A stretch of DNA of 64,000 bases from an uncultured Desulfobulbaceae bacterium (GTDB taxonomy: Bacteria > Desulfobacterota > Desulfobulbia > Desulfobulbales > BM004): NCBI GenBank assembly GCA_947259115.1, contig CAMYKS010000004.1, forward strand, positions 66,810 to 130,809. The letters are read 5' to 3'. Below are positions 1 to 15,686 of this stretch, piece by piece. Numbering within the stretch: position 1 is the first letter of the stretch; every line of letters begins with the position of its first letter. Under the pieces are notes generated by a model that worked only from the letters and a program-made list of their open reading frames with translations, was not told where the DNA came from and ran no database searches. The position numbers and the translations under genes were made by a program.

Positions 1-712
1 GGACCAGTATGGTCTGCTCCGCTACATGGAGCAATGTATACAATTCACTTTTCTGGTCCGCCAGATCACCAAAAAACAATACACCTGCCGGACATGCCTC
101 GGCGCAGGCGGTAGTAGTCTCCCCGTTCTGCAAGCGTCTGCGGTAACAAAAATCGCATTTGTCCACTGCCTGGAGCTCTCTGTTATAGTATCGGGCATTG
201 TAAGGGCATGCAGTCATACAGGCCTTGCATCCGATACATAACGACTCATTCATCATGATAATGCCATTCTTCTTATCTTTATAGGTAGCTTTTGTTGGAC
301 ATACGCGGACACATGGAGGCCTGTTGCATTGATTGCAGAGTACCGGGAGAAACTCCCGTATCATTTTACTGGCTGCAATGCCCGTTTTTCTGCGACTTAG
401 AATTGCGTTTCTGGACCCATAAGAAGGAACATTATTTGTTTGGGTGCATGCTTCAATACAAAGCTCACAGTCTATGCATCTATCGTTATATATTATCATT
501 GCATGATGGGGTTGATAGGGATAGGTCCCCACAACACTGGCGCCAAGCAGTTCACCTTTTGCTTTTTGGGCAGGAGTAAGTGTAAGAACTGATCCACCCA
601 CGAACACACCGGTGACTTTAAGTCCCAGACGCAGAAAACCTCTACGCTCCTCCAAGGAAACCTTTGTTGAGGTGTTGCCTTTTCCGTCATTATAGTTCTT
701 TATATTGCTCAT
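1..712 (-). CDS. Tat-exported 4Fe-4S ferredoxin-type iron-sulfur subunit (PsrB/NrfC/DmsB-like), 3' end runs off the window
   Basis: Manual translation from the ATG at 712 gives MSNIKNYNDGKGNTSTKVSLEERRGFLRLGLKV... with a twin-arginine motif. It contains several Cys clusters (CIDCELCIEAC, CNQCNRPPCVRVCP, CIGCKACMTACP, CDFCYRR...CAEACP). No stop occurs before position 1. It is absent from the ORF track because the ORF is open at the edge. Confidence 0.85.
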   Translation of the reverse strand, partial: MSNIKNYNDGKGNTSTKVSLEERRGFLRLGLKVTGVFVGGSVLTLTPAQKAKGELLGASVVGTYPYQPHHAMIIYNDRCIDCELCIEACTQTNNVPSYGSRNAILSRRKTGIAASKMIREFLPVLCNQCNRPPCVRVCPTKATYKDKKNGIIMMNESLCIGCKACMTACPYNARYYNRELQAVDKCDFCYRRRLQNGETTTACAEACPAGVLFFGDLADQKSELYTLLHVAEQTILV

Positions 713-1125
713 CATAAATTTGTAAGGAAATCATTTCCTGTCGCAGGGTTGCATACTATAAAGGTACTTAGATGCAGCGGTCAAGGCAATATTTCTAATC
801 ATTTTCGGTGCATAACCGTGACTTTCAGAACAAAAGCAAATATGTTCAGCCTCAAGTCCAGTAGCGGCATGAAAAAATATTATTCTTATTTCAAATTGAT
901 TGGATTCCATAAACAATATTTATCTTTTAGAATTGCCTCATAACAAAAAATGAATTAGCATTCACTCTTTTTCGTGATAAACGTTAAATTAAATATAATT
1001 TTGTATTTCTTATTGGTGCGAATAATTTTGAGTAGAGCCACGGATACGAACTAAATTATGCTCAATATTTATATAAACGATCAATAAAACCGCACATAAA
1101 AGATCCAACTCTTGCAAGGGAGATT

Positions 1126-2934
1126 TTGATGGACGCCCAACATGACCTGACTGATCGGATACTGATTGTTGATGATGAGGAGAGCTTACGCCTGACCTTT
1201 GAAATGCTGTTAAAAAGGGCCGGCTATGGATCTGTTACCGGGGTATCAAGCTTCGAGGAAGCCCTTGCTGCTGTTAAACGTGAAGACTTTGACCTGATCA
1301 TCAGCGATATCGTCCTCCAGGGTGCTTCAGGAATTGATCTTCTGCGGCAGATCAAGGAAATGGGCAAAACCTGTCCTGTGGTCATGATAACAGGGTACCC
1401 GAATATTGAAACAGCTGCTGAGGCAGTACGGCTCGGTGCTTTTGACTATGTACCCAAGCCTGTTAAAAAGGACGAACTGTTAAAAATAGTGGCCCTGGCC
1501 CTTGAAAAACAGGAACTGCAAAAAGAAAAAATCCGCTTTGAGGAACAACAGGAAAAAAATCGCTATCTGCAAGAGACAATCCTTGGTTCTGTCAGAGAGA
1601 TAATCATTACCATAGACACCCATCTCCGCATTGCCGACATGAACGATATGGCCCGCGACTGGGCCCGATCCTTCCTGCCTGAAATTGCCATCGGTGTTTC
1701 TCTTCCCACATTGACCAGTAAATTTGGCCGGGCATTGCTTGACGATGCGGAAAAGGTTCTCAAGCACCGGAATGAGATCAAACTCCATCGTATCGAATTG
1801 CAGAAATCGGATGGAACCTTTGGTGTTATGAGTGTCACAGCAGCGCCCCTCGAAGATAATAAGTCAACGTTTCTCGGTGTGGTAATCACTGCCCGTGATC
1901 TAACCCATCTGGAAGATCTTGATAAACGTGATCTGCGCTCGAAATTCCACCGTTTTGTTGGGAAAAGTCAGCCAATGCAGCGCATTTATGCCCTCATCGA
2001 AAGCGTCGGCAAGGTCGACACAACGGTCCTTATCACTGGTGAAAGCGGTACAGGAAAGGAACTTGTTGCTGATGCCCTGCATGAAGAAAGCCCACGCCAC
2101 AACCGCCCTTTGGTCAAGGTTGACTGCACGGCCATCCCTGAAGAACTTCTGGAAAGCGAGCTCTTTGGGCATAAAAAAGGATCCTTCACCGGTGCGGACA
2201 GGGACAGACTTGGAAGAATCCTGCAGGCGGACGGCGGCACCCTTTTTCTCGATGAAATAGGTGATATTTCTTCACGCATGCAGTTGCGGCTGCTGCGTTT
2301 TCTCCAGGAAAGAACATTTTATCCGGTTGGACAGGACCTGCCCATCCAGGTTGATGTAAGGGTTATCACGGCGACCAATGCCGATCTCAAAGAAAAAGTA
2401 CGCAGGGACCAGTTCCGGGAAGACCTTTACTTCAGGCTTCGGGTTGTTGATATTATCCTGCCGCCGTTGCGCGAACGCAAGGAGGACATTCCTCTCCTGG
2501 CCCAACACTTCCTCGCTGGTTTTGACAATAAGATGAAAAAAGGTGTTACCGGTTTTTCCGACTCTGTAATGGAACTGTTTATGAACCATTCCTGGCCGGG
2601 AAATATCCGAGAACTGGAGCATGTCGTTGAACGCGCCTACGTGCTCTGTCTGGGAGACACGTTAACAACGGATCACCTGCCTGCTGAAATATTGATTGCA
2701 GAAACACCTCAACTTCCAGGCCATGAACCTGCAGTTCATCACCATGATCCGCCCAAACCCATTTCACCTGTAATGGATTCAGAGGATGAGGTAGGGCAAA
2801 TTATTGAAGCCCTGCGCCGCACTGCGGGCAATAAGGCCAAGGCGGCCCGTTTACTCGGAGTAGACCGCAGCACATTGTACAGAAAAATATCGAGTTATAA
2901 TATTGACCTGTCCAATCTGGATATTTATGAGTAG
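1126..2934 (+). CDS. Sigma54-dependent response regulator (NtrC family: REC + PAS-like + AAA+ sigma54-interaction domain + Fis-type HTH)
   Basis: REC domain: ILIVDDEESLRL, DLIISDIVL. Walker A: GESGTGKE. Also ESELFGHKKGSFTGA (GAFTGA-type loop) and C-terminal HTH GNKAKAARLLGVDRSTLYRKI. Confidence 0.93.
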   Translation: MMDAQHDLTDRILIVDDEESLRLTFEMLLKRAGYGSVTGVSSFEEALAAVKREDFDLIISDIVLQGASGIDLLRQIKEMGKTCPVVMITGYPNIETAAEAVRLGAFDYVPKPVKKDELLKIVALALEKQELQKEKIRFEEQQEKNRYLQETILGSVREIIITIDTHLRIADMNDMARDWARSFLPEIAIGVSLPTLTSKFGRALLDDAEKVLKHRNEIKLHRIELQKSDGTFGVMSVTAAPLEDNKSTFLGVVITARDLTHLEDLDKRDLRSKFHRFVGKSQPMQRIYALIESVGKVDTTVLITGESGTGKELVADALHEESPRHNRPLVKVDCTAIPEELLESELFGHKKGSFTGADRDRLGRILQADGGTLFLDEIGDISSRMQLRLLRFLQERTFYPVGQDLPIQVDVRVITATNADLKEKVRRDQFREDLYFRLRVVDIILPPLRERKEDIPLLAQHFLAGFDNKMKKGVTGFSDSVMELFMNHSWPGNIRELEHVVERAYVLCLGDTLTTDHLPAEILIAETPQLPGHEPAVHHHDPPKPISPVMDSEDEVGQIIEALRRTAGNKAKAARLLGVDRSTLYRKISSYNIDLSNLDIYE

Positions 2935-3341
2935 CAGAGCGCTTCACTTATCGTATTAATAATTTCTCCTGCTTTACCTGTACAGCCTCCCACGGACTGC
3001 CACACTTTTTACTGCACATGGAGAGCCGCTCCATTATCAACTATCTAAAATTTTAATATTATTTGATTTATTGTCCTGTTGCATAATTGTTCCCCATAAA
3101 CAATTCCTTTAATAGCAATATTTCACTTTTTGATATTTTTACAGAATAGACATTCCAGGTCATGCACATGGGCACGTATATATAATAAATTACATATAAT
3201 GCTGAAATAATAACATAAAAGTTACTTTATCATGCTGTGCCGGGAAACATGCGTGCTTGATTTTCAATCCCGATGGAACGACAAGACAACTCCATTTCAC
3301 TTCTTACATAAAGTATTAATATTAAAAAGAATAATTACAAC

Positions 3342-3381
3342 TGCAACACATGTGTTGCAACACATGTGTTGCATGCAACAC
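3342..3381. promoter_or_regulatory. Putative enhancer (UAS) cluster 1: overlapping perfect palindromes built from TGCAACA(C) half-sites
   Basis: TGCAACACATGTGTTGCA (3342-3359, 18-bp perfect palindrome) and GTGTTGCATGCAACAC (3366-3381, 16-bp perfect palindrome). ACACATGTGTTGCA is tandemly duplicated. The cluster lies about 255 bp upstream of the sigma54 promoter at 3610. Confidence 0.6.
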
Positions 3382-3609
3382 TCCATGCGACAGGCATATA
3401 ATAAGCATTCTCAATTATGTTCCTGGTCAATTTTTCGAAGCATTGCAGTCCTCGGGAGAGAGTATCGGTACAAAAGTGTTCTCAAATCAGACCTATTAAC
3501 CATAACTACCTGTTATTAAATGAACAATTAAATTCACCATATACATTTTTATATTTTTTCAAAATCCAGCGCAATAATTAAACATGAAACCTGAAGCTAA
3601 ATATTTTTC

Positions 3610-3625
3610 TGGCATGGGATATGCA
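3610..3625 (+). promoter_or_regulatory. Sigma54 (-24/-12) promoter P1
   Basis: TGGCAT-GGGAT-ATGCA has the exact GG-N10-GC spacing of the TGGCAC-N5-TTGC consensus. It lies 74 nt upstream of the ATG at 3699. Confidence 0.7.
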
Positions 3626-3698
3626 TAACTCCAAAGCAAAGCATAAATTTAGAACGTAATTTAACAAAATTGCACTCGAACCACCAAGGAGACACACA

Positions 3699-3926
3699 AT
3701 GTACGATTCAATGAAACTCAGCCAGGAAAGAGTGGCAACATTTGACAGCACTGTGGAAGTTGCCGAACTCGAACTGGGAAATTCCAGATTGGGTTTAGGG
3801 ATTATCATGGTAATGGCTGCTTTCGTAGGTATCTGGGGAGTAGCATGTTTGGTAAATGGTTTGGCCAGTGCAGGGAGTTTCAGTGCAATCGGACGCAGCC
3901 TCATAACTGCCTTCACAGGAATGTAA
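3699..3926 (+). CDS. Small membrane protein, family A (75 aa), copy 1
   Basis: SD AAGGAGA lies 9 nt upstream. There is one predicted TM segment (LGLGIIMVMAAFVGIWGVACLVNGL). It is paralogous to 11083..11310 and, across the N-terminus and TM, to 10269..10448. Confidence 0.8.
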   Translation: MYDSMKLSQERVATFDSTVEVAELELGNSRLGLGIIMVMAAFVGIWGVACLVNGLASAGSFSAIGRSLITAFTGM

Positions 3927-3962
3927 TACGTATTTTATTATTTGAAATAAACGGGAATCGTC

Positions 3963-4271
3963 ATGGGCAAGAATACAATAAACGGCAAGAGAATAGCATG
4001 GCATGCTTCTATTTTTTGCGGCACAGTTATCAGCATTTGGTCTTCAGCAGCATTTCTCAGCGGCTTGGCCCAGGCCAACTGGCAATTGTCCGAACTCATA
4101 CGGCAGTACCTGGTTGCTGTTGGCCTGCTGCAGGAGTTCCACACCCTGTCCGACTTTTATACCCATATCAAGGGTGTTGAATATATTATTGCAGCCATGT
4201 TTCTTGGGGCCTTTCCTGCTTTCTATACCTATCTCAATCGTTCCAGAGGGGGAATTGGAGCAAAAACGTAA
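3963..4271 (+). CDS. Small membrane protein, family B (102 aa), copy 1
   Basis: Two hydrophobic segments flank the amphipathic stretch ANWQLSELIRQYL. Over the 84 aa that align without gaps (I17-N92) it is about 80% identical to 11354..11668, and many of the DNA differences are synonymous. Confidence 0.82.
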   Translation: MGKNTINGKRIAWHASIFCGTVISIWSSAAFLSGLAQANWQLSELIRQYLVAVGLLQEFHTLSDFYTHIKGVEYIIAAMFLGAFPAFYTYLNRSRGGIGAKT

Positions 4272-4412
4272 CCTTTGATCTGACATAGTTGCCTGGTTGT
4301 GTTGCAGTAAACTGCCAGGTATTTTTTTACCCAAAACTCAAGCTTTAGAAATAATTATTATAAACAATTTCAGTAATTTATAAAAAATTAACCCAAAGGA
4401 GGTAACAGAAAA

Positions 4413-4949
4413 ATGGAGCTAATCCAAAAATATCTACTGAGTTCACTCATGGCAATGCTTTTGTGCTTTTCTTCTTATGGCACCAATGCTTTAGCAGGTG
4501 AAGGGCCTGATGAGGTGGAAATCGATTCCCTGGCTCAGCTTTATGATCCAGTCTACTTTGACCATGCCATGCACGAAGAAGTTACTGAAAGTAAATGCTC
4601 AGTCTGCCATCACCATACTCTTGGCACTGAAATCGAAAATGAAAACTGCATGCGCTGCCACGCAGAAAGTGGTGCAACCGATGAAATCACCTGCCAGGGC
4701 TGCCATTCAAGCAAACGGTTTGATGCTGACTATCTGCATAAAATTGATGCTGACAATACTCTGTATCACCGCGACAAGGTGGGACTGAAAGCAGCTTATC
4801 ACATCCGCTGTATGAACTGTCATGAGGAAATGGGTGTGGCGAACGGTTGCCAGGATTGCCATACACGCACCGATGCAGGTGACAAGTTTTTCCATGCCGG
4901 AAGCTATACGCCTCCCAAAAGTGATAAACCGGTAGGTGGTGGACACTAA
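4413..4949 (+). CDS. Periplasmic multiheme cytochrome c (cytochrome c3-like, five CXXCH motifs)
   Basis: Signal peptide, SD AAAGGAGG, and the motifs CSVCH, CMRCH, CQGCH, CMNCH and CQDCH. A c3-like FDHAMH stretch precedes the first heme motif. Confidence 0.88.
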   Translation: MELIQKYLLSSLMAMLLCFSSYGTNALAGEGPDEVEIDSLAQLYDPVYFDHAMHEEVTESKCSVCHHHTLGTEIENENCMRCHAESGATDEITCQGCHSSKRFDADYLHKIDADNTLYHRDKVGLKAAYHIRCMNCHEEMGVANGCQDCHTRTDAGDKFFHAGSYTPPKSDKPVGGGH

Positions 4950-4998
4950 AGGCGGATTACATAAAGTACTTTTCAGCATATATAATAAGGAGAAGATA

Positions 4999-5907
4999 AT
5001 GAAAGCAATGAACCGAAGAAAATTCATGAAAGGCAGCCTACTCGGAGGAGCTGCCGCATCGGTAGTCGCCAAAAGCAAAAGTGCAGAAGCTTCTGCTTCT
5101 TTTGGCGGATATCCTGAAGCCATGGGCGTACTGGTCGACTTGACCCGCTGTGTCGGCTGCCGGAGCTGCGAAGCCGCATGCAACAAGGAGCAGGGCCTGC
5201 CGGCCCCGGCCCAGGCTTTTGACGATATGTCGGTCCTGGATCACGAGCGCAGAACCAGCGAAGGAGCATATACCGTTGTCAACCGCTACGAAATCCCGGG
5301 GCAGGACCACCCCCTCTTCCGCAAGATACAGTGCAATCACTGCAACGAGCCTGCATGTCTGACCTCATGCTTTGTCAATGCCTACACCAAGACGCCTGAA
5401 GGGGCAGTAATATATGACCCTACCGTTTGCGTGGGTTGCCGCACATGCATGGTTGCCTGTCCTTTTTATATCCCGGCTTACAGCTACTCCAGTGTTTTAA
5501 ACCCGGTTATTAAAAAATGTATATTCTGTTACGATACCAGGCTGAAGTTCGGTCGTCCTCCGGCCTGCGTCGAAGCATGTCCGCGTGAAGTTCTGACTTT
5601 TGGCAAACGCCAGGATCTTATCAAGATCGGCCATAAAAGGATTCAGAATTATCCTGACGTTTACGAAGATCATATCTACGGCGAAAATGAGGTCGGGGGA
5701 ACATCCTGGATGTATCTTTCAAATGCCCCCTTTGACCAGGTAGGCTTTGATACTGATCTCGGCAATCAGCCGATTCTCTCCTATGTCAAGGAGTTCCTGA
5801 CCGTGGTCCCCATGGTATTGACTATCTGGCCTGCACTTTTTGCCGGGTTTCACCTCCTGGCAACACGTAAGGATGCCAAGAATAAAGAAGAAAAAACTGA
5901 GATATAA
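4999..5907 (+). CDS. Tat-exported 4Fe-4S cluster protein (HybA/NrfC-like) with C-terminal membrane anchor
   Basis: Start chosen at MKAMNRRKFMKGSLLGG (Tat motif) with SD AAGGAGAAG, internal to track ORF 4936. Cys clusters: CVGCRSCEAAC, CNHCNEPAC, CVGCRTCMVACP, CIFC...CVEACP. The C-terminus is hydrophobic. Confidence 0.88.
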   Translation: MKAMNRRKFMKGSLLGGAAASVVAKSKSAEASASFGGYPEAMGVLVDLTRCVGCRSCEAACNKEQGLPAPAQAFDDMSVLDHERRTSEGAYTVVNRYEIPGQDHPLFRKIQCNHCNEPACLTSCFVNAYTKTPEGAVIYDPTVCVGCRTCMVACPFYIPAYSYSSVLNPVIKKCIFCYDTRLKFGRPPACVEACPREVLTFGKRQDLIKIGHKRIQNYPDVYEDHIYGENEVGGTSWMYLSNAPFDQVGFDTDLGNQPILSYVKEFLTVVPMVLTIWPALFAGFHLLATRKDAKNKEEKTEI

Positions 5908-5924
5908 TAGGAGGGATGGAGAGA

Positions 5925-7193
5925 ATGAAAACACTTATCGCAAATGGGAAAATTCCCGTGGCTACGCATTATAATACCGGAAAAAATGAAAAATTAACCA
6001 TCAAAGACAAACTACTCCTGGGGCTGAGCTTAAGTGAATACCTGGCCCAGGCATTCAGGAATCCGCTCAACTGGCTCTTTGCAGTTATATTCACCTTTGG
6101 CGGCTACGTTACTGTAAGCAGGTTCTTCTTCGGACTTGGCTATGTAACGCACAGCTCCTATGATTACCCCTGGGGTCTTTTTCTTGGCTGGGGTCTCTTT
6201 GTCATGGTTCCTCTCTCAGCTTCAGGATTCATGCTGGGCACTACAGTCGAAGTCTTCGGGCGCCATGATTTCAAACCCATTGAACGGCTGGCTTTGTTAA
6301 ACGGCCTGTTGGGATATTTATTCGCGGTTATTTTTCTGCAGGTCGATCTCGGTCAACCCTGGCGCTTAATCTACCCGATGTTTGTCTCCCTGGGACCTGC
6401 GGCGGTTCTGTTCCTGGTTGCCTGGCATGTTGCTACCTATCTTTCAGTGCAGGTAGCTGAACTGGTTCCGGCCTTTGCCGAATGGGCTGCTATGCCGAAA
6501 CTTAAAACAGCTGTCAAAAAGACTATCCTCGGGTTGACCATCGCAGGCATTATTCTGTCCACCCTGCATCAGGGTGCTTTAGGAGCCCTGTTCACCTATG
6601 CTCCGGGAAAGGTCCATCCGTTATGGTACTCTTCACCGTTTCAATGGTTCCATTTCTTCTGTTCATCGATTTTTGCCGGTCTTTCCATGCTTATCGTCGT
6701 AAGCACGATCTGCAAAAAAACCATGGCCTGGCGCTGTGACAAAAGCTTCCTGGAGAGCCTGGACCGCCTCACCCTGGGACTGGCCAAGGGTGCCACCCTG
6801 GCATTAATCACCTATCTGGTTATCAAGATAATCGCCATTGCCCATGACGGCGACTGGGGCTACCTGGCAAGCGGCTGGGGCCAGTGGTTCATGCTGGAAA
6901 TGGTTGCGGGCGTTATCCTGCCCATGGTGCTCTTTACAATTTCCATCAGGAACAACATGCCAGGCCTGGCTCGATTTGCAGCTCTAATTGCGGTTCTCGG
7001 CATCGCCTTAAACCGTCTTAATACAGCTCTTATTACATTTAACTGGAAGCTTTATCAGGAAATACCGCACTGGCGGGAAGTAATGATCTGTATCTTCATC
7101 TACTCACTCTACATTGTAACCTACAGATTCATCCTGTATCGCTTACCCATCCTCTATAGCTGGAAAAAGGATGAAGATACGGCAAGTTCATAA
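5925..7193 (+). CDS. NrfD/PsrC/HmcC-family integral membrane quinone-interacting subunit
   Basis: About 420 aa polytopic membrane protein immediately after the FeS subunit. Start moved to the ATG at 5925 because the SD AGGAGGG abuts the ATG at 5916. Confidence 0.8.
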   Translation: MKTLIANGKIPVATHYNTGKNEKLTIKDKLLLGLSLSEYLAQAFRNPLNWLFAVIFTFGGYVTVSRFFFGLGYVTHSSYDYPWGLFLGWGLFVMVPLSASGFMLGTTVEVFGRHDFKPIERLALLNGLLGYLFAVIFLQVDLGQPWRLIYPMFVSLGPAAVLFLVAWHVATYLSVQVAELVPAFAEWAAMPKLKTAVKKTILGLTIAGIILSTLHQGALGALFTYAPGKVHPLWYSSPFQWFHFFCSSIFAGLSMLIVVSTICKKTMAWRCDKSFLESLDRLTLGLAKGATLALITYLVIKIIAIAHDGDWGYLASGWGQWFMLEMVAGVILPMVLFTISIRNNMPGLARFAALIAVLGIALNRLNTALITFNWKLYQEIPHWREVMICIFIYSLYIVTYRFILYRLPILYSWKKDEDTASS

Positions 7194-7207
7194 AAGCTCT
7201 CTTCCTT

Positions 7208-7253
7208 GTGCAACAGGGGTGTATGGAAATCCCAAACCACACCCCTGTTGCAC
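7208..7253. repeat. Perfect 15-bp inverted repeat (hairpin) carrying the TGCAACA/TGTTGCA half-sites
   Basis: GTGCAACAGGGGTGT (7208-7222) pairs with ACACCCCTGTTGCAC (7239-7253) across a 16-nt loop, with no downstream T-run. It sits between the NrfD-like gene and kinase HK1. Confidence 0.7.
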
Positions 7254-7426
7254 CTGGCTGCCCAATGCAGCCGATCGTCCAAGACCACAAAAAACAACTT
7301 TACCTGCTATGTACACAAACAGACGAAGCGATGGTTACAGACAAGTCATTAAGAACGGATCTGTATGCTTTTGTCTTTGCATGGGTACCGGTTGGGGAAC
7401 ATTTGTAAGACGCACTAATTCCCAGG

Positions 7427-9775
7427 GTGACTGACATGATCCTTTCATTGAGAACAACCAGTTATACTGCAGCAATCTTTGTGGCATTGATCCTCGGTTT
7501 TCTCTTATTGCTCGGTTCGCGGCAATACAGGTCCCATAAAGAATATGCAAGCATCATTGAACAGAATGAAAAGGTCATTTTTCAATTTGCCACCATCAGG
7601 GAGCATATAACCGAATCACTCCTGGAAAACCGCCTTCAGCAGCTCAACAGCATTACAAATGAAATTGAAAACTTAAATGTAAATATTTCACAGATACTGC
7701 AGCAACCGATCATCCCAGATGAGTACAGGCTGTCATTTGCCGGCCAGGTTGACTTTGCAGGCATCATTCTTTTACTCCGAAGCATAGGCTCGGGTGACCA
7801 GCCCCTGTCAAAGATCCGCCTGCTCAACCAGGAAATACGCATTTTGGGTGAACGGCTGATGCTGTTCGACAGGGTTATTGTAGATCATGTAAAAAGAAAG
7901 CTTGTCGGTTTTCAGAATTTTGTCATAGGACTCCTGGCCATCATCCTTTTTATTGTCATCTATATTTTACTCTTCTGGCACGGCCAAATTGCCATGCCGC
8001 TCATTGACCTTGTAAAGCAAGCCAGGGAAGTAACTTCCGGGAAACGCTCTACCCTGTCCGTACGAAAAAAAAGGGGCGAGGTGGCTGAGCTGGCAGGATC
8101 ATTCCAGAATCTCCTGTCACAACAAAACAGGACATCCAGTGAAATTGCACGTTACAACAGGGTATTGGAAATGGTCCATAATGTTAGCGCATCCGTTTGG
8201 CAGGCTAAAACCAGGGATGCCGTCTTTATCGAAGCATGCCGGGGTGTGCTGCACAACAGCGATTACGGCCTGGTATGGATCGGTATCCCAGGGGAAGACA
8301 AGCGGATTCTGCCTGTCATTGCAGATGGTTCAACGACCATGAACCGTCAGGAGCAGGATGAATGCATGACCGCCCTGCTCACAGCCGCTGAAGAAAATAC
8401 TGAAAAATATGATGCAGCCCATAAGGCTTTAGAGAAAAAATCACCTGTGATCCTACGTGATATTCTGGCTGGATTACCCAAGGGCCCCTTCAAAAACACA
8501 CCTTTTGCAAACAGCGAGCCTCACTGTATAGCTCTGCCCCTTGTATACGACCAGCAGATATTTGGAGTCATGAACATATACTCCAATACCACTCAGGGCT
8601 TTTCTGAGGAAGAAATTGAACTTCTGAAAGGCATGAGCCGCGAGATTGTTTTTGCTATATTTGCCCTGGCAGCCAAAGAGTCAGACAAGACATTGGCGCG
8701 TCTGCAGGCTGCCAGAAAAAAAGTCTTTGAAAACAATCCTGATCTTATTCTTGTTATCAGAAACAACGGCACCATTGTCGAGGCAAACCCCACTGCAGAG
8801 GCTGAACTGGGAAACAACACCAATGAAGTTATCGGCTCAAGTATTTATGACATTTTCCACGGCAGTCCCGATACTCCCCGTCAATTCCTGGATACCTTAA
8901 GCGCTGGCAGAGATACTGTTTCCCTTGAACTTCGTTGTTCCGGAACAGAATATACGGTTAGTCTCTCTTCCCTGAAAAATGAGCCCGGAGAAGATGATAC
9001 ATACCTTCTGATTGCCAGGGATAATACCGAACAAAAGGCCCACAAATATGAGACAATTAAGGCTTCAAAACTGGCTGCAATGGGTGAGCTTTCCGTTGGG
9101 GTGGCAAATGAGATAAACAACCTTACCAATGGCATTATCAACTATACCCAGATCCTGAGCGATGAAATTGAAGAAACCGCAGGCAACAATAACCAGTCTA
9201 TTGAATTATTGAAAAATGTTATAAAGGAAGGCGAAAGAATTTCGCAGATTGTCCAGCAGCTCCTCTTCTTCAATGGGAATCGCTCCCAGACAAAAGAAGC
9301 TTTTAAGATAAACAAAATAATTGAAGACTCCCTGGCGCTTACCAAAAATCAGTTCAGATATGACGCAATTGATGTCATACTTCGTTTTCCGGATGATGTC
9401 CCTTCCGTCAAGGTGAATGTCCAGGAAATGCAGCATATATTTCTAAACCTCTTGAGCAATGCAAGATATGCCCTTAATCAGCGCTACCCAGGCCAGCACC
9501 CGGAAAAACGCATTGAAATATTTGCAGAGATAACCGGCCTGAATGGACAGCAGCGCCTAAAGGTTGTATGCACCGATTTTGGCGTCGGTATTCACCCAAA
9601 CATCATTACCAAGGTATTTGAACCTTTCTTCTCGACCAAACCTGAAGGAGTAGGCACAGGCCTTGGTCTCTCCATTTGCCGCAGTATTGTTGAAGACGAT
9701 AACGGTACGCTCGAAATTGAAAGTACCCTGGATGACCATACCTCCATAATCATGGAACTGCCTGTCGCTCCATAA
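7427..9775 (+). CDS. Membrane sensor histidine-kinase-like protein HK1 (2 TM, HAMP-like, GAF, PAS, DHp, HATPase_c) with a degenerate H-box
   Basis: N-box LLSNARYAL, G-boxes DFGVGI and GTGLGLSI. The H-box reads ELSVGVANEINN, with Asn where the paralogues have His. The start may be GTG 7427 or ATG 7436. Confidence 0.85.
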   Translation: MTDMILSLRTTSYTAAIFVALILGFLLLLGSRQYRSHKEYASIIEQNEKVIFQFATIREHITESLLENRLQQLNSITNEIENLNVNISQILQQPIIPDEYRLSFAGQVDFAGIILLLRSIGSGDQPLSKIRLLNQEIRILGERLMLFDRVIVDHVKRKLVGFQNFVIGLLAIILFIVIYILLFWHGQIAMPLIDLVKQAREVTSGKRSTLSVRKKRGEVAELAGSFQNLLSQQNRTSSEIARYNRVLEMVHNVSASVWQAKTRDAVFIEACRGVLHNSDYGLVWIGIPGEDKRILPVIADGSTTMNRQEQDECMTALLTAAEENTEKYDAAHKALEKKSPVILRDILAGLPKGPFKNTPFANSEPHCIALPLVYDQQIFGVMNIYSNTTQGFSEEEIELLKGMSREIVFAIFALAAKESDKTLARLQAARKKVFENNPDLILVIRNNGTIVEANPTAEAELGNNTNEVIGSSIYDIFHGSPDTPRQFLDTLSAGRDTVSLELRCSGTEYTVSLSSLKNEPGEDDTYLLIARDNTEQKAHKYETIKASKLAAMGELSVGVANEINNLTNGIINYTQILSDEIEETAGNNNQSIELLKNVIKEGERISQIVQQLLFFNGNRSQTKEAFKINKIIEDSLALTKNQFRYDAIDVILRFPDDVPSVKVNVQEMQHIFLNLLSNARYALNQRYPGQHPEKRIEIFAEITGLNGQQRLKVVCTDFGVGIHPNIITKVFEPFFSTKPEGVGTGLGLSICRSIVEDDNGTLEIESTLDDHTSIIMELPVAP

Positions 9776-9933
9776 CCCGGGAATCCGGCAATATTCGTTG
9801 ATCACCTTCTATAGTATTTCCTGCCTTCCAGTGCCTTACACATTATCTGCTTATCATGATAAAACAAGCAACCCGGACTGCATCTTTTCATTTCAGCTTG
9901 CCAATCATAATGTTCCGACACTACCAGCAAATA

Positions 9934-10006
9934 TGTTGCATGCAACGTATTTGCGCCACAATATCGTAGCATGCAACACCCGGTGCAACACTTGACAGCT
10001 GCAACA
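9934..10006. promoter_or_regulatory. Putative enhancer (UAS) cluster 2
   Basis: TGTTGCATGCAAC palindrome at 9934-9946, plus three further TGCAACA(C) half-sites at 9972, 9984 and 10000. The cluster lies about 210 bp upstream of P2. The intervening DNA is extremely A-rich. Confidence 0.55.
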
Positions 10007-10170
10007 AATAGTACAAAACCGAAAATTGTTTCAAGATTAGAAGCAACTAAACATTCAATAAATAATATTAACAAAATCAGACGAATACAAACTAAACAAG
10101 CAAATAAAAACACAAACAATCGAGCTTTCAAAAAGTCATTTATCAAAAAAAACGACAAAAGAAATGAATG

Positions 10171-10186
10171 TGGCACCATTTCTGCA
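10171..10186 (+). promoter_or_regulatory. Sigma54 (-24/-12) promoter P2
   Basis: TGGCAC-CATTT-CTGCA has exact GG-N10-GC spacing. It lies 83 nt upstream of the ATG at 10269. Confidence 0.7.
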
Positions 10187-10268
10187 ATAAAAAAGACAAA
10201 GAACATAATGAGGAATACAAATACAGTTAATTTTATAAAAAAAAAATAAACAAATAAGGAGGCCAGTC

Positions 10269-10448
10269 ATGACTAATGCAATCGACACCACCCAGGAAAG
10301 AATCAATACAGTTACCCAGGAAAATGCTGAAACCCAAAAAACAGAAATGAGTAAGGCGGAAATCTGTTTTGGAGCCCTCATGGCAATTGCTGCCATTGCA
10401 GGAATGTGGGGTGTTGTCTCCCTGCTTATTTCATTCTTCCTGAAATAA
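10269..10448 (+). CDS. Small membrane protein, family A-related singleton (59 aa; below the ORF-track cutoff)
   Basis: Manual translation: MTNAIDTTQERINTVTQENAETQKTEMSKAEICFGALMAIAAIAGMWGVVSLLISFFLK. SD AAGGAGG lies 6 nt upstream. It shares QER at residues 9-11 and the TM motif A-x-x-G-x-W-G with the 75-aa proteins. It has its own sigma54 promoter and terminator. Confidence 0.72.
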   Translation: MTNAIDTTQERINTVTQENAETQKTEMSKAEICFGALMAIAAIAGMWGVVSLLISFFLK

Positions 10449-10480
10449 ACAAAAAATTACAAATAATAGTACATCATTAA

Positions 10481-10526
10481 CCCATAAAGACTTCTGCTTC
10501 AGCAGGAGTCTTCATGGGTTTTTTTA
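10481..10526 (+). terminator. Intrinsic terminator
   Basis: CCCATAAAGACTTCTGC / GCAGGAGTCTTCATGGG stem (2 mismatches) followed by a T7 run. Confidence 0.8.
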
Positions 10527-10652
10527 TTATTTTTTTTTAAAAAACTTTTTTCACTTTAAATTACTAAATTGCATTTGATAATTCTTCCATATAATCAGCA
10601 TAATATTTATTAATTCATATAAAATTATTTTTCTCTATTAATACCACGTTTA

Positions 10653-10680
10653 TGTTGCAACAAAAATGTTGCATGCCACA
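10653..10680. promoter_or_regulatory. Putative enhancer (UAS) cluster 3
   Basis: TGTTGCAACA (10653-10662, palindrome) and TGTTGCATGCCACA (10667-10680, near-palindrome). The cluster lies about 330 bp upstream of P3. Confidence 0.5.
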
Positions 10681-10992
10681 CAAGTGCTACACACGCCACA
10701 GTTCCTGCACCATTTCAGTAAATAATATTTTATATACATAATTTCAATTAGTTACAATTATATATTGGGACAAAATGTGGCTGAATATACCGTCTTATTT
10801 ACTTTAAACATCAGTACTTATATTAAGAACATTCCGTATAATTACCGGACATTAAAATTTATTAGACAATAATTATTTCCAATTTTATATTATTATACTA
10901 TTGAAATAATAGAATAAAATTTTATGAAATCATTTTAGCCCACTCCCTGTTTCATGTCTTCCTTAGGAACAAAATTACAATAATTATTTTTA

Positions 10993-11008
10993 TGGCACGA
11001 TTTATGCT
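10993..11008 (+). promoter_or_regulatory. Sigma54 (-24/-12) promoter P3
   Basis: TGGCAC-GATTT-ATGCT has exact GG-N10-GC spacing. It lies 75 nt upstream of the ATG at 11083. Confidence 0.72.
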
Positions 11009-11082
11009 TCAATATATTACAAGAAGATAATGCAGAGATACAAAGCTGAATTCTGACAACCATACAAATAAGGAGAAAAGCC

Positions 11083-11310
11083 ATGCTGAGCGAACATAAA
11101 ATTTCAAAAGGACAGGTTACAACCTTTGCCGGTAATGCTGAAATCTCCGACCTCCAAATGGGAAACTCAAGATTTGGTATCGGCGTTATATTAATCATGG
11201 CTGGTTTTGTTGGTGCCTGGGGCTTTGTATGTCTCATTAACGGCATAGCACAAACCCAGAGTATACAGGAATTAGGTCGTGGCATCTTCACAGCGTTTAC
11301 AGGAATATAG
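11083..11310 (+). CDS. Small membrane protein, family A (75 aa), copy 2
   Basis: SD AAGGAGA. Collinear with 3699..3926 with no gaps (GNSRFGIGVILIMAGFVGAWGFVCLINGI, C-terminal FTAFTGI). Confidence 0.8.
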   Translation: MLSEHKISKGQVTTFAGNAEISDLQMGNSRFGIGVILIMAGFVGAWGFVCLINGIAQTQSIQELGRGIFTAFTGI

Positions 11311-11353
11311 GAAGAAATTATTTCATTTAACCATAACTACTCAGGAGGACAAA

Positions 11354-11668
11354 ATGTCAAAAAGAGAAACCACTACTAAAAGCATGACCGTATTCAAATT
11401 CGCATCCATCTTTCTTGGATCACTCATTACAATCTGGTCAAGTGCTTCCATCTTAAGCGGTCTGGCCCAGGCAAACTGGCAGGTATCAGAATTGCTCCGC
11501 CAGTATCTTATCACTGTAGGCCTGATGCAGGAATTTCACACCCTGTCAGACTTCTACACTCATATCAAAGGAGTTGAATACATCATTGCTGCCATGTTTC
11601 TTGGTGCCTTCCCTGCATTCTACGCATACCTGAATAAACAACCGGCTGAAGAAATGGCTGCTGAATAA
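11354..11668 (+). CDS. Small membrane protein, family B (104 aa), copy 2
   Basis: Start moved to the ATG at 11354 (SD AGGAGG), internal to track ORF 11279. The stretch HTLSDFYTHIKGVEYIIAAMFLGAFPAFY is 100% identical to copy 1 despite 13 synonymous DNA changes. Confidence 0.82.
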   Translation: MSKRETTTKSMTVFKFASIFLGSLITIWSSASILSGLAQANWQVSELLRQYLITVGLMQEFHTLSDFYTHIKGVEYIIAAMFLGAFPAFYAYLNKQPAEEMAAE

Positions 11669-11691
11669 ACTGACTCTACATCTGTAAAAAA

Positions 11692-11723
11692 CCTGGCCGC
11701 TAAAATTAACGGCCAGGTTTTTT
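11692..11723 (+). terminator. Intrinsic terminator
   Basis: CCTGGCCG / CGGCCAGG stem followed by a T6 run. Confidence 0.85.
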
Positions 11724-11978
11724 CATGTAATAATCACACTCGTTACAACCGTTTTGTTTTTTAAAAAAACCATTATTGCGTTATTCCTTTTATTCATACT
11801 CCAACTGCGTGGGTGGAATTGCAAAATTATCTTTATGCTTGGGAATATTCTGTTATATTCATTTTATTTTGTTTTTTGTGACCGAATGAATACATATCAA
11901 ACTGTGATGCAGTCCCTGTTTTATTTGCTATTCGAGCTTGACTGACAAAATTTCAACCTGCACCATTTTGCAAAGACT

Positions 11979-12857
11979 ATGAAGAAAAGATGCTTTTCCT
12001 TCTCCTTATGGCTCCTGCTCATGGGCTTAACTTCGTTAAGCTGCGCTGAACAGAATCTAACGGTAATGCCGGCATCGGAACCTCCGGTAATTGACGGACT
12101 CGCCACCGATCCTGCCTGGCAAAATGCTCCTGCTGTTTCAACAACTGACAAGGCCAATCTTCTGCCGATAATAATTAAAGCAGTATATACTGATACAGAG
12201 ATATTTTTTCTGGTCAGCTTTCCCGATCCTGATAAGTCGCTAACCCATAAAACATGGGTCTGGGACAAGGGGCGTCAAATCTATACGGTGGGTCATGACC
12301 GGGAAGATATTTTTATCTTCAAATGGAATATGGGCTCTAATCCTGTTGATATGAGTTTATACTCCGATACTGCTTACCACGCTGACATCTGGTTCTGGAA
12401 GGCATGCCGCACTGATGGAGTTGGCTATGCTGATGACAAGAGCCATACATACAGTCTGACAGAAGACCGGAATGCAACAACAATTGTTTCCCGAACAGGA
12501 GAAACCATGTATCTGTTACGGTCAGGTGACGATGGTGAGAGTGCTTACACTATCGACCTGATAAGCGATTATGGGGGTGATATGCTACCCCGCTATACTT
12601 TACGGCAGCCCACTGGAAGCAGAGGTGATGTCCGGGCCAAAGGTGCTTGGCTTAATGGCAGATGGACCATCGAGTTCAGGCGGAAACTGGTAACCGGCAA
12701 CGGGGATGATATCCAATTTACCCCTGGCAAAAAATACTTGTTCGGTATTTCCCGCTATGAAATTGCCGGCCGGAGCCATAATTCAAAACTATCCGACCCA
12801 TTTTACGGAACCGGTGATGTCAACGAAACCCTGTGGTTGGAATTCATTCAGCAATAG
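11979..12857 (+). CDS. Secreted DOMON / ethylbenzene-dehydrogenase-gamma-like (EB_dh) putative heme-binding domain protein
   Basis: Signal peptide MKKRCFSFSLWLLLMGLTSLSCA. The pattern VIDGLATDPAWQNAPA...IKAVYTDTEIFFLVSFPD...DIWFWKA resembles the EB_dh/CBM9-like fold. This is family recognition by eye only. Confidence 0.55.
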   Translation: MKKRCFSFSLWLLLMGLTSLSCAEQNLTVMPASEPPVIDGLATDPAWQNAPAVSTTDKANLLPIIIKAVYTDTEIFFLVSFPDPDKSLTHKTWVWDKGRQIYTVGHDREDIFIFKWNMGSNPVDMSLYSDTAYHADIWFWKACRTDGVGYADDKSHTYSLTEDRNATTIVSRTGETMYLLRSGDDGESAYTIDLISDYGGDMLPRYTLRQPTGSRGDVRAKGAWLNGRWTIEFRRKLVTGNGDDIQFTPGKKYLFGISRYEIAGRSHNSKLSDPFYGTGDVNETLWLEFIQQ

Positions 12858-12866
12858 TAATTACCA

Positions 12867-13796
12867 ATGACCTACATACATATTTCCATACTGCCTTTTT
12901 TGTTTTCAACCTTGCTCTTTACTTTTTTGTCCTTCCTGCCTGTGGCCGTTTGCCATGGCACTGAGACGCAGGCACAGGCAAGAGCTGAAAGAACTCTGCG
13001 TATGCTCCTTGTTCCCGAAAAAAACACCTTTGAACAACGCAGGCGGTACAAATATATCACCGACTACCTTTCCCGGAAGATGGAGATGAATGTCACTGTT
13101 GAAATCATGGCAAATTATGGGGAAATCAGTGTTGCTTTTCAGGAAGGAAGAGCCGATGCCGGGTTTTTCGGGAGTTTCAGCTATGCATTAACCCATGCCC
13201 AGACAGGCATTGAACCCCTTGTCAGGCCGGTATGGCTTGACGGGAACTCCACGTATCGGGGATATATTTTTGTTAGAAAAGACAGTGGCATCAGAACCGT
13301 TAAAGATATGAAAAACAAAAGCCTTGTTCTCGTTGATAGGGCAACAACCGCAGGCTATATATTTCAACGCTTTTATTTCAAGTACCACGGTATCGACAAC
13401 CTGGAGGATTATTTTTCAAGAATTTCCTATGCCCGCAGCCATGATGCTGCCGCCTGGGCTGTTTATACGGGAGAGGCTGATATAGGTGGTTGCAAAAATC
13501 ATATTTTCAATAGTTTTAAAGATGAATATCCTGACTTCAAAGAACAGATGATGGTTCTTGCCGAATCAGCGGAGGTACCTTCAAACGGTCTCGCTGTCCG
13601 CAAGGACCTCAACCCGGCCATAAAATTACGCCTGAGAACGCTGCTGCAGCACCTGCACGAATCCACAGAAGGCCGTGAAATATTGAAAAATTTTGGCGCA
13701 ACAAAATTTATTGCAACGAACAACGACGATTATTTCGTCCTTTATAATATGGTTAATGAATTGGGTATAGATCTTGAAGAATATTCCTTTAAATAG
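12867..13796 (+). CDS. PhnD-like (phosphonate-type) periplasmic substrate-binding protein
   Basis: Signal/TM segment, then LRMLLVPEKNTFEQRRRYKYITDYLS...GRADAGFFGSFSYAL, typical of the PhnD/Phosphonate-bd family. It lies directly upstream of a sensor kinase. Confidence 0.7.
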   Translation: MTYIHISILPFLFSTLLFTFLSFLPVAVCHGTETQAQARAERTLRMLLVPEKNTFEQRRRYKYITDYLSRKMEMNVTVEIMANYGEISVAFQEGRADAGFFGSFSYALTHAQTGIEPLVRPVWLDGNSTYRGYIFVRKDSGIRTVKDMKNKSLVLVDRATTAGYIFQRFYFKYHGIDNLEDYFSRISYARSHDAAAWAVYTGEADIGGCKNHIFNSFKDEYPDFKEQMMVLAESAEVPSNGLAVRKDLNPAIKLRLRTLLQHLHESTEGREILKNFGATKFIATNNDDYFVLYNMVNELGIDLEEYSFK

Positions 13797-13829: not shown

Positions 13830-15686
13830 ATGAACTTTTCGTTCCGCACAGCCAGAAATCTGGGCCTTTTCATACTATTGCTGATCATAATCATTGAGAG
13901 TATTTTTGCCTATATAACCATATCAGACAGCTCGGAACGCCTCACCTCCATTATCACAATCGATCAGGTTAAGTTGCGGCGCTGGTATGATGTTTCTGAG
14001 ATCATCGCCCATGCAAAAGACAGCCTTTACGACTACAGGCTGGGCCGCACTGATGTCGTTGCATCAATTGACCTGCTGGTCAATAAGGCCCTTAAAGAAA
14101 TAAATGAAATTAAAGTACTGGCAAAAGATCAGGAAGAACTTGCCAATATAGATGAAATCAGCCGGGCTGCGCAAAAGTTCAAACAGGCAGTGTATGCCTT
14201 CGAAACAGAGGTGCATGAAGGTTACCGGGGTGGATCCTCAGCTCGGGAAATGGAAGATATTGCGGTACGGGAAGCAGACCGTATAGCAACCCTGGGTCGA
14301 GAGGCGGCAACCTATGTCAGTAAACGCATAGAAGAAAAAAATACAGCGATTTTAGATATTTCAATATTTTCCCGCAAGATGCTGACCCTGGTCCTGTTTA
14401 TAGCCATTCTCGCTACCATCATTAATGCCTATTTCATGGCACGTGCCCTGGGAAAACCAATAACGCAGCTAGTTGAAGGCACCAACCGCCTGGCCGAAGG
14501 CGACTTGACCCATCGGGTCAGCGTGCATTCCAGGGACGAGATCGGTCAGCTGGCCGCATCGTTCAACAAAATGGCTGAAAAACTGAAAAAATCCAGGCAG
14601 GAACTTCTTGCTGCAAAGGCCTACACCGATAACGTAATACGCTCCATGAGCAACTCTCTCCTGGTAGTGAATAAAAACCAGACGATCAGGGCGGCCAACC
14701 AGGCCACCTATGACCTGCTCGGCTATACGAGAGAGGAATTGATCGGCAAACCATTTTCACTTATTTTTGCTGCAGGGTATTACGGCGGCATCGGACTTGA
14801 TGATCTCATCAATAAAGGCTTCACAAAAAACGTGGAAACAACCTATCTGACCAAGTACGGCGAAATAGTCCGCATGCTTTTGACCGCCTCGGTCATTTTC
14901 AATGAAGAAGGCTCGTTTGAAGGCATTGTCTGTGTTGCCCAGGATATTACCATGCAGACTGAAACAATGCGGGCCGGACATTTGGCTTCAATCGGTGAAT
15001 TGGCAGCAGGTGTAGCCCACGAAATCAACAACCCCATCAACAGCATAATTAACTTCGCCCAAATCATGATTGATGAATTACAGCGAGGAGAAATTCCTGT
15101 TGAAGAAATCCCACAGAGAATCATCAGGGAAGGTGACCGGGTCGCAAGCATTGTCAGCAGCCTGCTTTCTTTTGCCCGCGAAGATGAAAAGGAAAGAAAG
15201 CCCATTGATGTCCGCGACGTCCTCGATGAAGTCCTGGCCCTTACAGAGGCCCAGATTATTAAAGATGGCATCAACCTGAACGTGGATTTTCCTGCCGGAC
15301 TCCATAAAGTACTTGCAGATTTTCAACAGGTTGAACAGGTATTTTTGAATATAATCAACAATGCCCGTTACGCCTTAAACCAAAAACATCCCAAAGCCCA
15401 TCCCAAGAAAAACTTTATCATCCAAGCCAACGAAGAAACAATTGACGATACACTTTTTCTTGAAGTTACTTTTCTGGATAGCGGCACCGGCATTCCCGCT
15501 GAAATTATCGACAGGTTATACAATCCATTCTTCTCCACAAAACCTTCCGGCATAGGCACCGGGCTTGGTCTTGCCATCAGCCATGGGATCATTACCGACC
15601 ATGGCGGCAAACTTACTTTAAAAAGCAGTTACGGGGAGTATGCCCAGGTAACTATCCAACTGCCGGTTATTGTTGAAAACGGATGA
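13830..15686 (+). CDS. Membrane sensor histidine kinase HK2 (periplasmic helical sensor, HAMP, PAS, HisKA, HATPase_c)
   Basis: HAMP: LAEGDLTHRVSVHSRDEIGQLAASFNKM. H-box: GELAAGVAHEINNP. N-box: IINNARYAL. G2: GTGLGLAISHG. Confidence 0.92.
   Translation: MNFSFRTARNLGLFILLLIIIIESIFAYITISDSSERLTSIITIDQVKLRRWYDVSEIIAHAKDSLYDYRLGRTDVVASIDLLVNKALKEINEIKVLAKDQEELANIDEISRAAQKFKQAVYAFETEVHEGYRGGSSAREMEDIAVREADRIATLGREAATYVSKRIEEKNTAILDISIFSRKMLTLVLFIAILATIINAYFMARALGKPITQLVEGTNRLAEGDLTHRVSVHSRDEIGQLAASFNKMAEKLKKSRQELLAAKAYTDNVIRSMSNSLLVVNKNQTIRAANQATYDLLGYTREELIGKPFSLIFAAGYYGGIGLDDLINKGFTKNVETTYLTKYGEIVRMLLTASVIFNEEGSFEGIVCVAQDITMQTETMRAGHLASIGELAAGVAHEINNPINSIINFAQIMIDELQRGEIPVEEIPQRIIREGDRVASIVSSLLSFAREDEKERKPIDVRDVLDEVLALTEAQIIKDGINLNVDFPAGLHKVLADFQQVEQVFLNIINNARYALNQKHPKAHPKKNFIIQANEETIDDTLFLEVTFLDSGTGIPAEIIDRLYNPFFSTKPSGIGTGLGLAISHGIITDHGGKLTLKSSYGEYAQVTIQLPVIVENG

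Follow-up and report, generated by a model that had tools for sequence, protein, structure and literature searches.

A 64-kb window of a contig from an uncultured member of the Desulfobulbales (BM004), to which all coordinates below refer, contains on its + strand a locus in which the gene for a predicted sigma-54 activator, a bacterial enhancer-binding protein (EBP), is followed by three putative sigma-54 promoters (P1, P2 and P3), each with an array of short repeated half-sites, or upstream activating sequence (UAS), ahead of it and genes for small membrane proteins behind it. The gene order is EBP, UAS1-P1-S75a-D102a, the genes for a cytochrome c and for HmcB-like and HmcC-like proteins, a kinase gene, UAS2-P2-S59 and UAS3-P3-S75b-D104b, and it is the same throughout 17 related loci, which represent at least 12 genomes of the Desulfobulbales. 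Thirteen of these loci came from a scan with the HmcD-like pair in Desulfobulbales metagenome-assembled genomes (MAGs), and the remaining four were recruited through S75 homologues. Alignments of the intergenic regions of P1, P2 and P3 are designated A3, A4 and A5, respectively, and that of the terminator after D102a is designated A6. Motifs, their non-random occurrence, conservation, positional constancy, gene order, domain content and coding status were read directly from these sequences. The regulatory features are as follows.

1126..2934, + strand: response-regulator-type sigma-54 activator (REC-PAS-AAA+-Fis helix-turn-helix (HTH), from Pfam), the proposed cognate EBP
3342..3392, no strand assigned: UAS1, with six TGTNGCA/TGCNACA half-sites (starts at 3342, 3353, 3356, 3367, 3374 and 3386), containing two overlapping TGCAAC-N6-GTTGCA dyads and the common 24-bp module (3357-3380); the conserved block of A3
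3513..3529, no strand assigned: conserved block TAACTACCTGTTATTAA in the P1 spacer, at about -97 to -81, in conserved columns of A3
3610..3625, + strand: putative sigma-54 promoter P1, TGGCATGGGATATGCA, with a predicted start at about 3636
7427..9775, + strand: membrane GAF-PAS histidine kinase and presumed EBP partner (from Pfam; synteny kept)
9934..10006, no strand assigned: UAS2, with dyad copies at 9934-9947 and 9965-9978, half-sites at 9954, 9984 and 10000 and the common module at 9955-9978; the best-conserved block of A4
10171..10186, + strand: putative sigma-54 promoter P2, TGGCACCATTTCTGCA, with a predicted start at about 10197
10642..10700, no strand assigned: UAS3, laid out as UAS1, with a degenerate dyad (10642-10659), a dyad (10656-10673), half-sites at 10674 and 10685, GCCACA at 10695 and the common module at 10657-10680; conserved in A5
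10993..11008, + strand: putative sigma-54 promoter P3, TGGCACGATTTATGCT, with a predicted start at about 11019

The letters and positions that a first-pass annotation of this DNA had given for P1 (3610-3625), P2 (10171-10186) and P3 (10993-11008) proved exact, as did the GG-N10-GC spacing claimed for all three and the distances of 74, 83 and 75 nt from their 3' ends to the ATG codons at 3699, 10269 and 11083. The pattern TGGCA-N7-TGCW matches four times in the window, with 1.8 matches expected, and three of the four are P1-P3; the fourth, at 45972, was dismissed as a chance occurrence, since it falls within the codons for the signal peptide of a secreted protein and lacks an upstream array. 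In A3 the TGGCA and TGCA of P1 are invariant across seven orthologues, and the -24/-12 columns are invariant in all of A3-A5. A -24/-12 element was found 67-96 nt 5' of the start codon in 28 instances in the related loci (two truncated instances were excluded), a set that comprises all S75a and S59 genes, plus S75b genes with their own promoter, for which upstream DNA was available. The P2 element of one locus, L010, is the variant CGGCATTGATTATGCA. Together these observations make it well supported that P1-P3 are sigma-54 promoters of the -24/-12 type. Downstream of P1, in the predicted 5' untranslated region of its transcript, a leader segment (AATTTnGCAAAATTTCAC, 3659-3674) is also conserved in the window and its orthologues (A3 columns 396-411), and this segment has no match in Rfam.

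The half-site upstream of the promoters had been described as TGTTGCA. That a half-site is repeated there was borne out, but TGTTGCA is not its only form: position 4 is free in the related loci, where TGTTGCA, TGTCGCA, TGTGGCA and TGTAGCA all occur, and the consensus is therefore TGTNGCA, extended to GTGTNGCA. TGTTGCA itself occurs 27 times in the window compared to 13.2 expected, an approximately two-fold excess, with 12 of the 27 matches inside the three clusters. The 14-bp dyad TGTNGCATGCNACA, allowing at most one mismatch, matches four times in the 64 kb, all within the clusters (0.14 expected), and a 24-bp core module, GCNAC-N6-GTNGCATGCNACA, matches exactly three times, once per cluster (0.01 expected). 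Oriented relative to its promoter, the module reads TGCAACACATGTGTTGCATGCAACACTCCATGCGACA at P1, cGCCACAATATCGTAGCATGCAACACCCGGTGCAACA at P2 and TGCAACAAAAATGTTGCATGCCACACAAGTGCTACA at P3. It is built from a dyad, TGCNAC-N6-GTNGCA, an abutting TGCNACA and a further TGCNACA 11-12 bp on, and the grammar common to the arrays can be written TGCNAC-N6-GTNGCA-TGCNACA-N4-6-TGCNACA; the UAS of P1 and P3 have a second, overlapping dyad upstream, and that of P2 has two dyad copies 31 bp apart.

The same grammar recurs in the relatives. In the related loci the 24-bp module, with S at one position, gave 19 exact matches, every one of them on the strand of the promoter and at a UAS position; in approximately 260 kb the module is confined to such positions. 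Half-sites occur at 10.3 per kb in the UAS windows of the related loci and at 0.70 per kb across the rest (248 kb), and an unbiased count of 7-mers in 28 upstream regions was headed by GCAACAC/GTGTTGC (45 observed, 1.8 expected) and TGCAACA (60 observed, 4.1 expected). Across genomes the core dyad keeps a distance characteristic of each promoter class, at -243 to -247 for P1, at -236 to -250 for P2, with the second copy about 31 bp downstream, and at -318 to -329 for P3. The presence of repeated dyads at all three promoters and their rarity elsewhere support the designation of the arrays as putative EBP upstream activating sequences. A literature search for TGTTGCA in connection with sigma-54 returned nothing relevant.

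In the details of the clusters the earlier description was partly revised. Clusters 2 and 3 matched it, and cluster 1 proved to be a perfect 32-bp palindrome (3342-3373), also a 14-bp tandem repeat, with the reported 16-bp palindrome after it, ending at 3381. The extents given had been slightly short, missing an additional TGCGACA (3386-3392), a TGCTACA (10685-10691) and the degenerate dyad that begins at 10642. The palindromes bring up the alternative that the clusters are RNA or DNA structures, such as a terminator of the EBP gene, a cruciform or the remnant of a repeat, that lie upstream of the promoters by coincidence. On the minus strand, cluster 1 was picked out as resembling a terminator, and, drawn as a 14-pair hairpin, it is 89% paired in seven orthologues with some double changes, the pair count itself being ambiguous. 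However, cluster 1 is not followed by a T-run on the + strand and no minus-strand gene ends there, and the same oriented 24-bp module is present in clusters 2 and 3, which form no long hairpins. Moreover, the half-sites keep TGT and GCA while their fourth base varies freely, the module is restricted to the UAS positions as described above, and a search of Rfam with window positions 1-13000 gave no match. A terminator or hairpin at cluster 1 was rejected on its context and on the module that it has in common with the hairpin-poor clusters 2 and 3, and we regard structure by coincidence as extremely improbable.

The clusters do lie upstream of the promoters as claimed, at a measured distance of 165-340 bp in place of the 200-330 bp given previously. 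This unusual distance would also suit arrays that are operators of a regulator other than an EBP, for example a repressor or a REC plus HTH_8 protein without an AAA+ domain that is encoded in the window (48980-49513) together with its kinase; such a regulator would modulate the units while the sigma-54 activator acts from solution or through other sites. A repressor, however, would have no plausible geometry on sites 165-340 bp ahead of a sigma-54 promoter, multiple dyads at a conserved distance are the hallmark of EBP enhancers, and the REC plus HTH_8 gene is 38 kb away with no linkage to the locus seen, all of which makes this explanation very unlikely.

That gene (- strand) encodes a regulator with a REC domain and a Fis-type HTH that resembles RegA, ActR and NtrX; its kinase neighbour is at 49535-50938 (- strand), and a NosL-family gene is at 48204-48785.

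Mean pairwise column identity in A3-A5 is 42-47%, and islands above 70% coincide only with the -24/-12 elements, the arrays of half-sites, the ribosome-binding sites and portions of the leaders. All three units are retained in L010, the most divergent genome (57% GC). P3 and UAS3 are absent from four loci (L002, L003, L009 and L014), in which S75b directly follows S59; these loci also lack the S59 terminator, so that S59, S75b and D104b make up a single P2 unit, which supports the co-regulation of these genes. The UAS3-P3 enhancer-promoter cassette has thus been gained or lost as a block. One of the four, L009 (JAIWHJ010000068.1), is labelled as a Promethearchaeota MAG, but its sequence is almost the same as that of L002, a Desulfobacterales contig, it bears the bacterial locus, and it is probably a binning contaminant.

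The product of 1126-2934 has all the hallmarks of an EBP. Pfam identifies Sigma54_activat (PF00158; E 8.6e-68, residues 278-443), an N-terminal Response_reg domain (1e-28), a C-terminal HTH_8 (6.8e-13), PAS_4 and AAA_lid_14, and the protein carries a Walker A motif (GESGTGKE) and, at residues 351-356, the loop GSFTGA, a variant of GAFTGA that is also listed for DVU3220 of Desulfovibrio vulgaris (PMC4641369). We therefore predict that it is an EBP of the response-regulator class and an activator of the sigma-54 holoenzyme. It is not an orthologue of a named regulator by NCBIfam, with scores of 420 for NtrC (TIGR01818; cut-off 559), 410 for AtoC (cut-off 714) and 402 for ZraR (cut-off 760). In accord with the claim that it is the only EBP in the window, tblastn found no second sigma-54 AAA+ gene in the 64 kb.

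The proposal that this EBP is the cognate activator of P1-P3 draws its main support from synteny. Its gene is directly upstream of UAS1 in nine of the ten genomes with a visible flank (the window, L001, L003, L004, L005, L011, L015, L016 and L017), the exception being L010, and its recognition helix (AARLLGVDRSTLYRKI) is invariant in the orthologues, as are the half-sites. This conserved adjacency argues strongly that the EBP recognises the TGTNGCA arrays, a conclusion that we draw from the sequences themselves. The arrays and promoters could instead be real but bound by another sigma-54 activator encoded elsewhere, with the adjacent EBP controlling something else or acting jointly. In L010 the UAS and promoters are retained without an EBP gene within 10 kb, related phyla bear many EBPs (PMC12316311), similar GTTGCA half-sites have been predicted for an unrelated Desulfovibrio EBP, DVU2827, and two more histidine kinases are encoded just downstream of the locus. 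Weighed against the position of the EBP gene beside UAS1, the presence of a kinase gene inside the cluster, the lack of a further EBP in the window and the joint invariance of recognition helix and half-sites, these points leave a different activator unlikely. In seven genomes the divergent intergenic region between the Fe-S and EBP genes showed neither a sigma-54 promoter nor a TGTNGCA array, and there is thus no indication that the EBP controls its own gene or the divergent operon.

Divergent from the EBP gene (window 1-720, - strand; 1900-7000 in L015-L017) is a second redox cluster, which starts with genes for a Tat Fe-S protein, NrfD and a cytochrome c7-like protein and continues with a multihaem NrfB-like cytochrome and cytochrome b; the region as a whole forms a conserved "redox island". 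Beyond the P3 unit lies a trio comprising an EB_dh haem protein, a PhnD-like binding protein and a HAMP-PAS kinase, which is syntenic in the relatives. Three PAS histidine kinases (7427-9775, 13830-15686 and 16528-18441) and one response regulator, the EBP, are encoded within 18 kb, which suggests that multiple sensors may feed one activator.

The DNA between arrays and promoters had been described as very AT-rich, consistent with intrinsic bending or with looping assisted by integration host factor (IHF). The spacers are AT-rich (23-31% GC), but not in a way that sets them apart, since other intergenic DNA here is 22-34% GC, and the strict IHF consensus WATCAANNNNTTR has no match in any of the three, and this part of the first-pass annotation carries no specific weight. 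Short conserved, TTGTTAWTA-like blocks are nevertheless present near -90, one resembling TTGTTATTAA in P1 and its reverse complement in P2. The P1 block (3513..3529) matches the IHF core only partially, and these blocks hint at a candidate site for an architectural, IHF-like protein.

Comparison with characterised systems places the locus in a familiar class. In the enteric NtrB/NtrC-glnAp2 system, a response-regulator EBP with a Fis-type HTH binds dyads upstream of a GG-N10-GC promoter, and phosphorylation drives its oligomerisation on the enhancer. The EBP class and the placement of dyads upstream of GG-N10-GC are the same here, and TGCNAC-N6-GTNGCA resembles the NtrC site TGCACC-N5-GGTGCA. 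In contrast to NtrC, however, the EBP described here has an additional PAS domain between REC and AAA+, its proposed enhancers lie further out, at about -240 to -330 as against -110 to -140, with arrays that contain 5-7 half-sites including direct repeats, and its predicted targets are small membrane proteins and not nitrogen genes. At norVW, the one-component NO sensor NorR binds three promoter-proximal GT-N7-AC sites, more than two of which are needed to nucleate the active oligomer; by analogy, a similar need for nucleation could explain the 5-7 half-sites per array.

The nearest precedents in function are the EBP-controlled cytochrome operons DVU3142-ohcBAC and DVU0621-nrfHA of D. vulgaris, which have been predicted or mapped (Kazakov et al. 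2015, PMC4641369). There, too, a sigma-54 activator gene lies beside an operon for periplasmic multihaem cytochrome, Fe-S and membrane subunits, with the regulon inferred from promoter and UAS (PMC4641369). DVU3142 differs in being a one-component regulator that is divergently transcribed and has a ACATGTGTTTAAACACATGT-like motif; the present system is two-component, has three promoters and begins its units with small-protein genes followed by terminators. Arrays of the TGT...ACA type have been predicted 250-420 bp upstream of genes in Desulfovibrionales, for example the TGTWACA arrays of DVU0744 and the GTTGCA-N5-TGCAAC sites of DVU2827 (PMC4641369). The repeated 7-bp half-sites are a common feature, and the GTTGCA/TGCAAC core is the same as that of the DVU2827 sites, whereas the proteins, the target genes and the half-site arrangement (here a dyad, then abutting and direct repeats) are different.

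The genes downstream of the promoters, and the terminators among them, define how far the predicted regulon reaches.

3699..3926, + strand: S75a, a 75-aa single-pass membrane protein of an uncharacterised family (open reading frame (ORF) and homologues)
3963..4271, + strand: D102a, a membrane protein of 102 aa whose C-terminus is HmcD-like (NCBIfam; Pfam of orthologues)
4290..4328, + strand: weak predicted intrinsic terminator (hairpin plus T-run), ending the P1 unit ahead of the cytochrome gene
4413-4949, + strand: five-CxxCH cytochrome c (ORF, Pfam, NCBIfam)
4999-5907, + strand: HmcB-like Tat Fe-S protein (ORF, Pfam, NCBIfam)
5916-7193, + strand: HmcC/NrfD-like membrane protein (ORF, Pfam, NCBIfam)
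10269..10448, + strand: S59, a 59-aa membrane protein and short relative of S75 (ORF, homology)
10479..10527, + strand: strong predicted intrinsic terminator 3' of S59 (-26.5 kcal/mol, z -7.5)
11083..11310, + strand: S75b, a paralogue of S75a (47% identity; ORF, homology)
11354..11668, + strand: D104b, an HmcD-like paralogue of D102a (68% identity; homology, NCBIfam)
11683..11725, + strand: strong predicted intrinsic terminator 3' of D104b (-22.6 kcal/mol, z -7.6)

Among orthologues of the five small ORFs, substitutions are three- to six-fold commoner at third than at second codon positions, and the five are therefore real genes. S75a has 518 homologues and no match in Pfam, NCBIfam or PDB. 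D102a has no match in a PDB sequence search and scores 27 bits against NCBIfam HmcD, under the cut-off of 34; its orthologues carry Pfam PF28260 (DVU_0533). The redox subunits also fall under the NCBIfam equivalog cut-offs, with 414 for HmcB (cut-off 420), 363 for HmcC (cut-off 550) and 48 for HmcA (cut-off 400). In composition, with a cytochrome c, a periplasmic four-cluster Fe-S protein, an NrfD-like protein and a small HmcD/NhcD-type subunit, the locus resembles Hmc and the NhcABCD complex of Desulfovibrio. It departs from these complexes in having five CxxCH motifs rather than 9 or 16, in lacking HmcE and HmcF, in subunit scores below the Hmc equivalog cut-offs and in that the HmcD-like gene is duplicated, comes first in order and has a novel 75-aa protein as its companion. 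The hmc operon of D. vulgaris, moreover, is regulated by Rrf1/Rrf2 and not by sigma-54.

An intrinsic terminator is predicted to close each unit after its small genes, and the direct sigma-54 output would therefore consist of five small membrane proteins. The first-pass annotation's view of a compact regulon thus stands for the three promoter units, with its scope narrowed to the five small-protein genes; the redox complex is not demonstrably included. The terminator after D102a is weak (-13.3 kcal/mol), and its stem and T8 are kept in nine loci. At most, the cytochrome, HmcB-like, HmcC-like and kinase genes would be reached from P1 by read-through of this terminator, or they may have a promoter of their own.

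The loop of the D102a terminator, TTGTGTTGCAGTAACCTG, is unusually conserved (A6) and holds one GTGTTGCA half-site. The TGTTGCA at 4300 was rejected as an EBP site, since it is isolated and sits in the loop of this conserved terminator. In L002 and L003 the reverse complement of the terminator contains a well-spaced sigma-54-like motif, TGGCAGGTTAACTGCA; in most of the other loci its spacing falls one base short. Directly after the hmcC-like stop codon is a second hairpin (7207-7254), with a perfect 15-bp stem, a folding energy of -32.8 kcal/mol and no T-run. This hairpin is kept in all orthologues (L002 3748-3793, L006 2292-2337, L016 13511-13556 and others), with compensatory changes (CAACAGGGGTGT versus CAGCAGGGGCGC), and its probable role, between hmcC and the kinase gene, is in stabilising or processing the mRNA. 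The half-sites at 7209 and 7246 belong to it and were likewise rejected as EBP sites, since the orthologous hairpins carry different bases there.

Taken together, our data favor a model, to which we assign a probability of roughly 0.7, in which the locus is a two-component, sigma-54-dependent regulatory unit whose neighbouring EBP acts through the arrays. In this model the membrane GAF-PAS histidine kinase (7427-9775) would phosphorylate the REC-PAS-AAA+-HTH activator (1126-2934), Fis-type HTH dimers of which would sit on the arrays of 5-7 TGTNGCA half-sites, where the active AAA+ ring would assemble. The ring would then loop across approximately 165-340 bp of AT-rich DNA, perhaps aided by an architectural protein near -90, and spend ATP to open the sigma-54 holoenzyme at P1, P2 and P3. 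Three short transcripts would result, each extending to an intrinsic terminator (S75a-D102a, S59 and S75b-D104b), and the output would be a burst of five small membrane proteins, two of the HmcD family and three of the uncharacterised single-pass family. These proteins are most plausibly accessory subunits of the adjacent quinone-interacting cytochrome c/HmcB-like/HmcC-like complex, and P1 could, through a leaky D102a terminator, raise expression of the complex and the kinase as well. The parts of this model that we infer are the identity of the protein on the sites, the transcription starts, the signal and what the small proteins do.

Several observations count against the model. The enhancer distance of 165-340 bp is at the long end of the usual range: most D. 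vulgaris promoters are no more than 100 nt from the closest EBP site, and only four promoters in the Desulfovibrio study were more than 300 bp downstream of one (PMC4641369). Since a few cases beyond 300 bp are known, the distances found here are long but not unprecedented. In addition, the L010 locus keeps its UAS and promoters with no EBP gene nearby, and Thermodesulfobacteriota genomes may hold dozens of EBPs (PMC12316311), such that another EBP with a similar HTH could bind. The P1-P3 spacers have neither a strict IHF site nor a distinctive AT content, and rpoN was not found among the scanned ORFs of the window. Finally, a conserved terminator stands between P1 and the redox genes, which makes control of the complex itself uncertain.

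A more specific proposal, which we consider doubtful, is that the five tiny membrane proteins, made from three units each with its own enhancer and terminator, are the sole direct output and serve either as exchangeable accessory subunits that remodel the adjacent Nhc/Hmc-like complex or as MgrB-like feedback connectors on the membrane kinase. If either is true, small proteins, and not the making of more enzyme, would be the means by which the signal re-equips a respiratory complex. That the direct targets would be five tiny membrane proteins is the least conventional aspect of the locus; the regulatory principle is a textbook one, and the value of the analysis is in annotation and the generation of hypotheses rather than in conceptual surprise. 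For the uncultured, sulfur-cycling Desulfobulbales it provides a testable regulatory map, comprising an enhancer grammar, three predicted transcription starts and a kinase/activator pair, and it flags two unstudied families of small membrane proteins, one HmcD-like and one newly described family of 75 and 59 aa, as putative tightly regulated partners of an Hmc/Nhc-type module.

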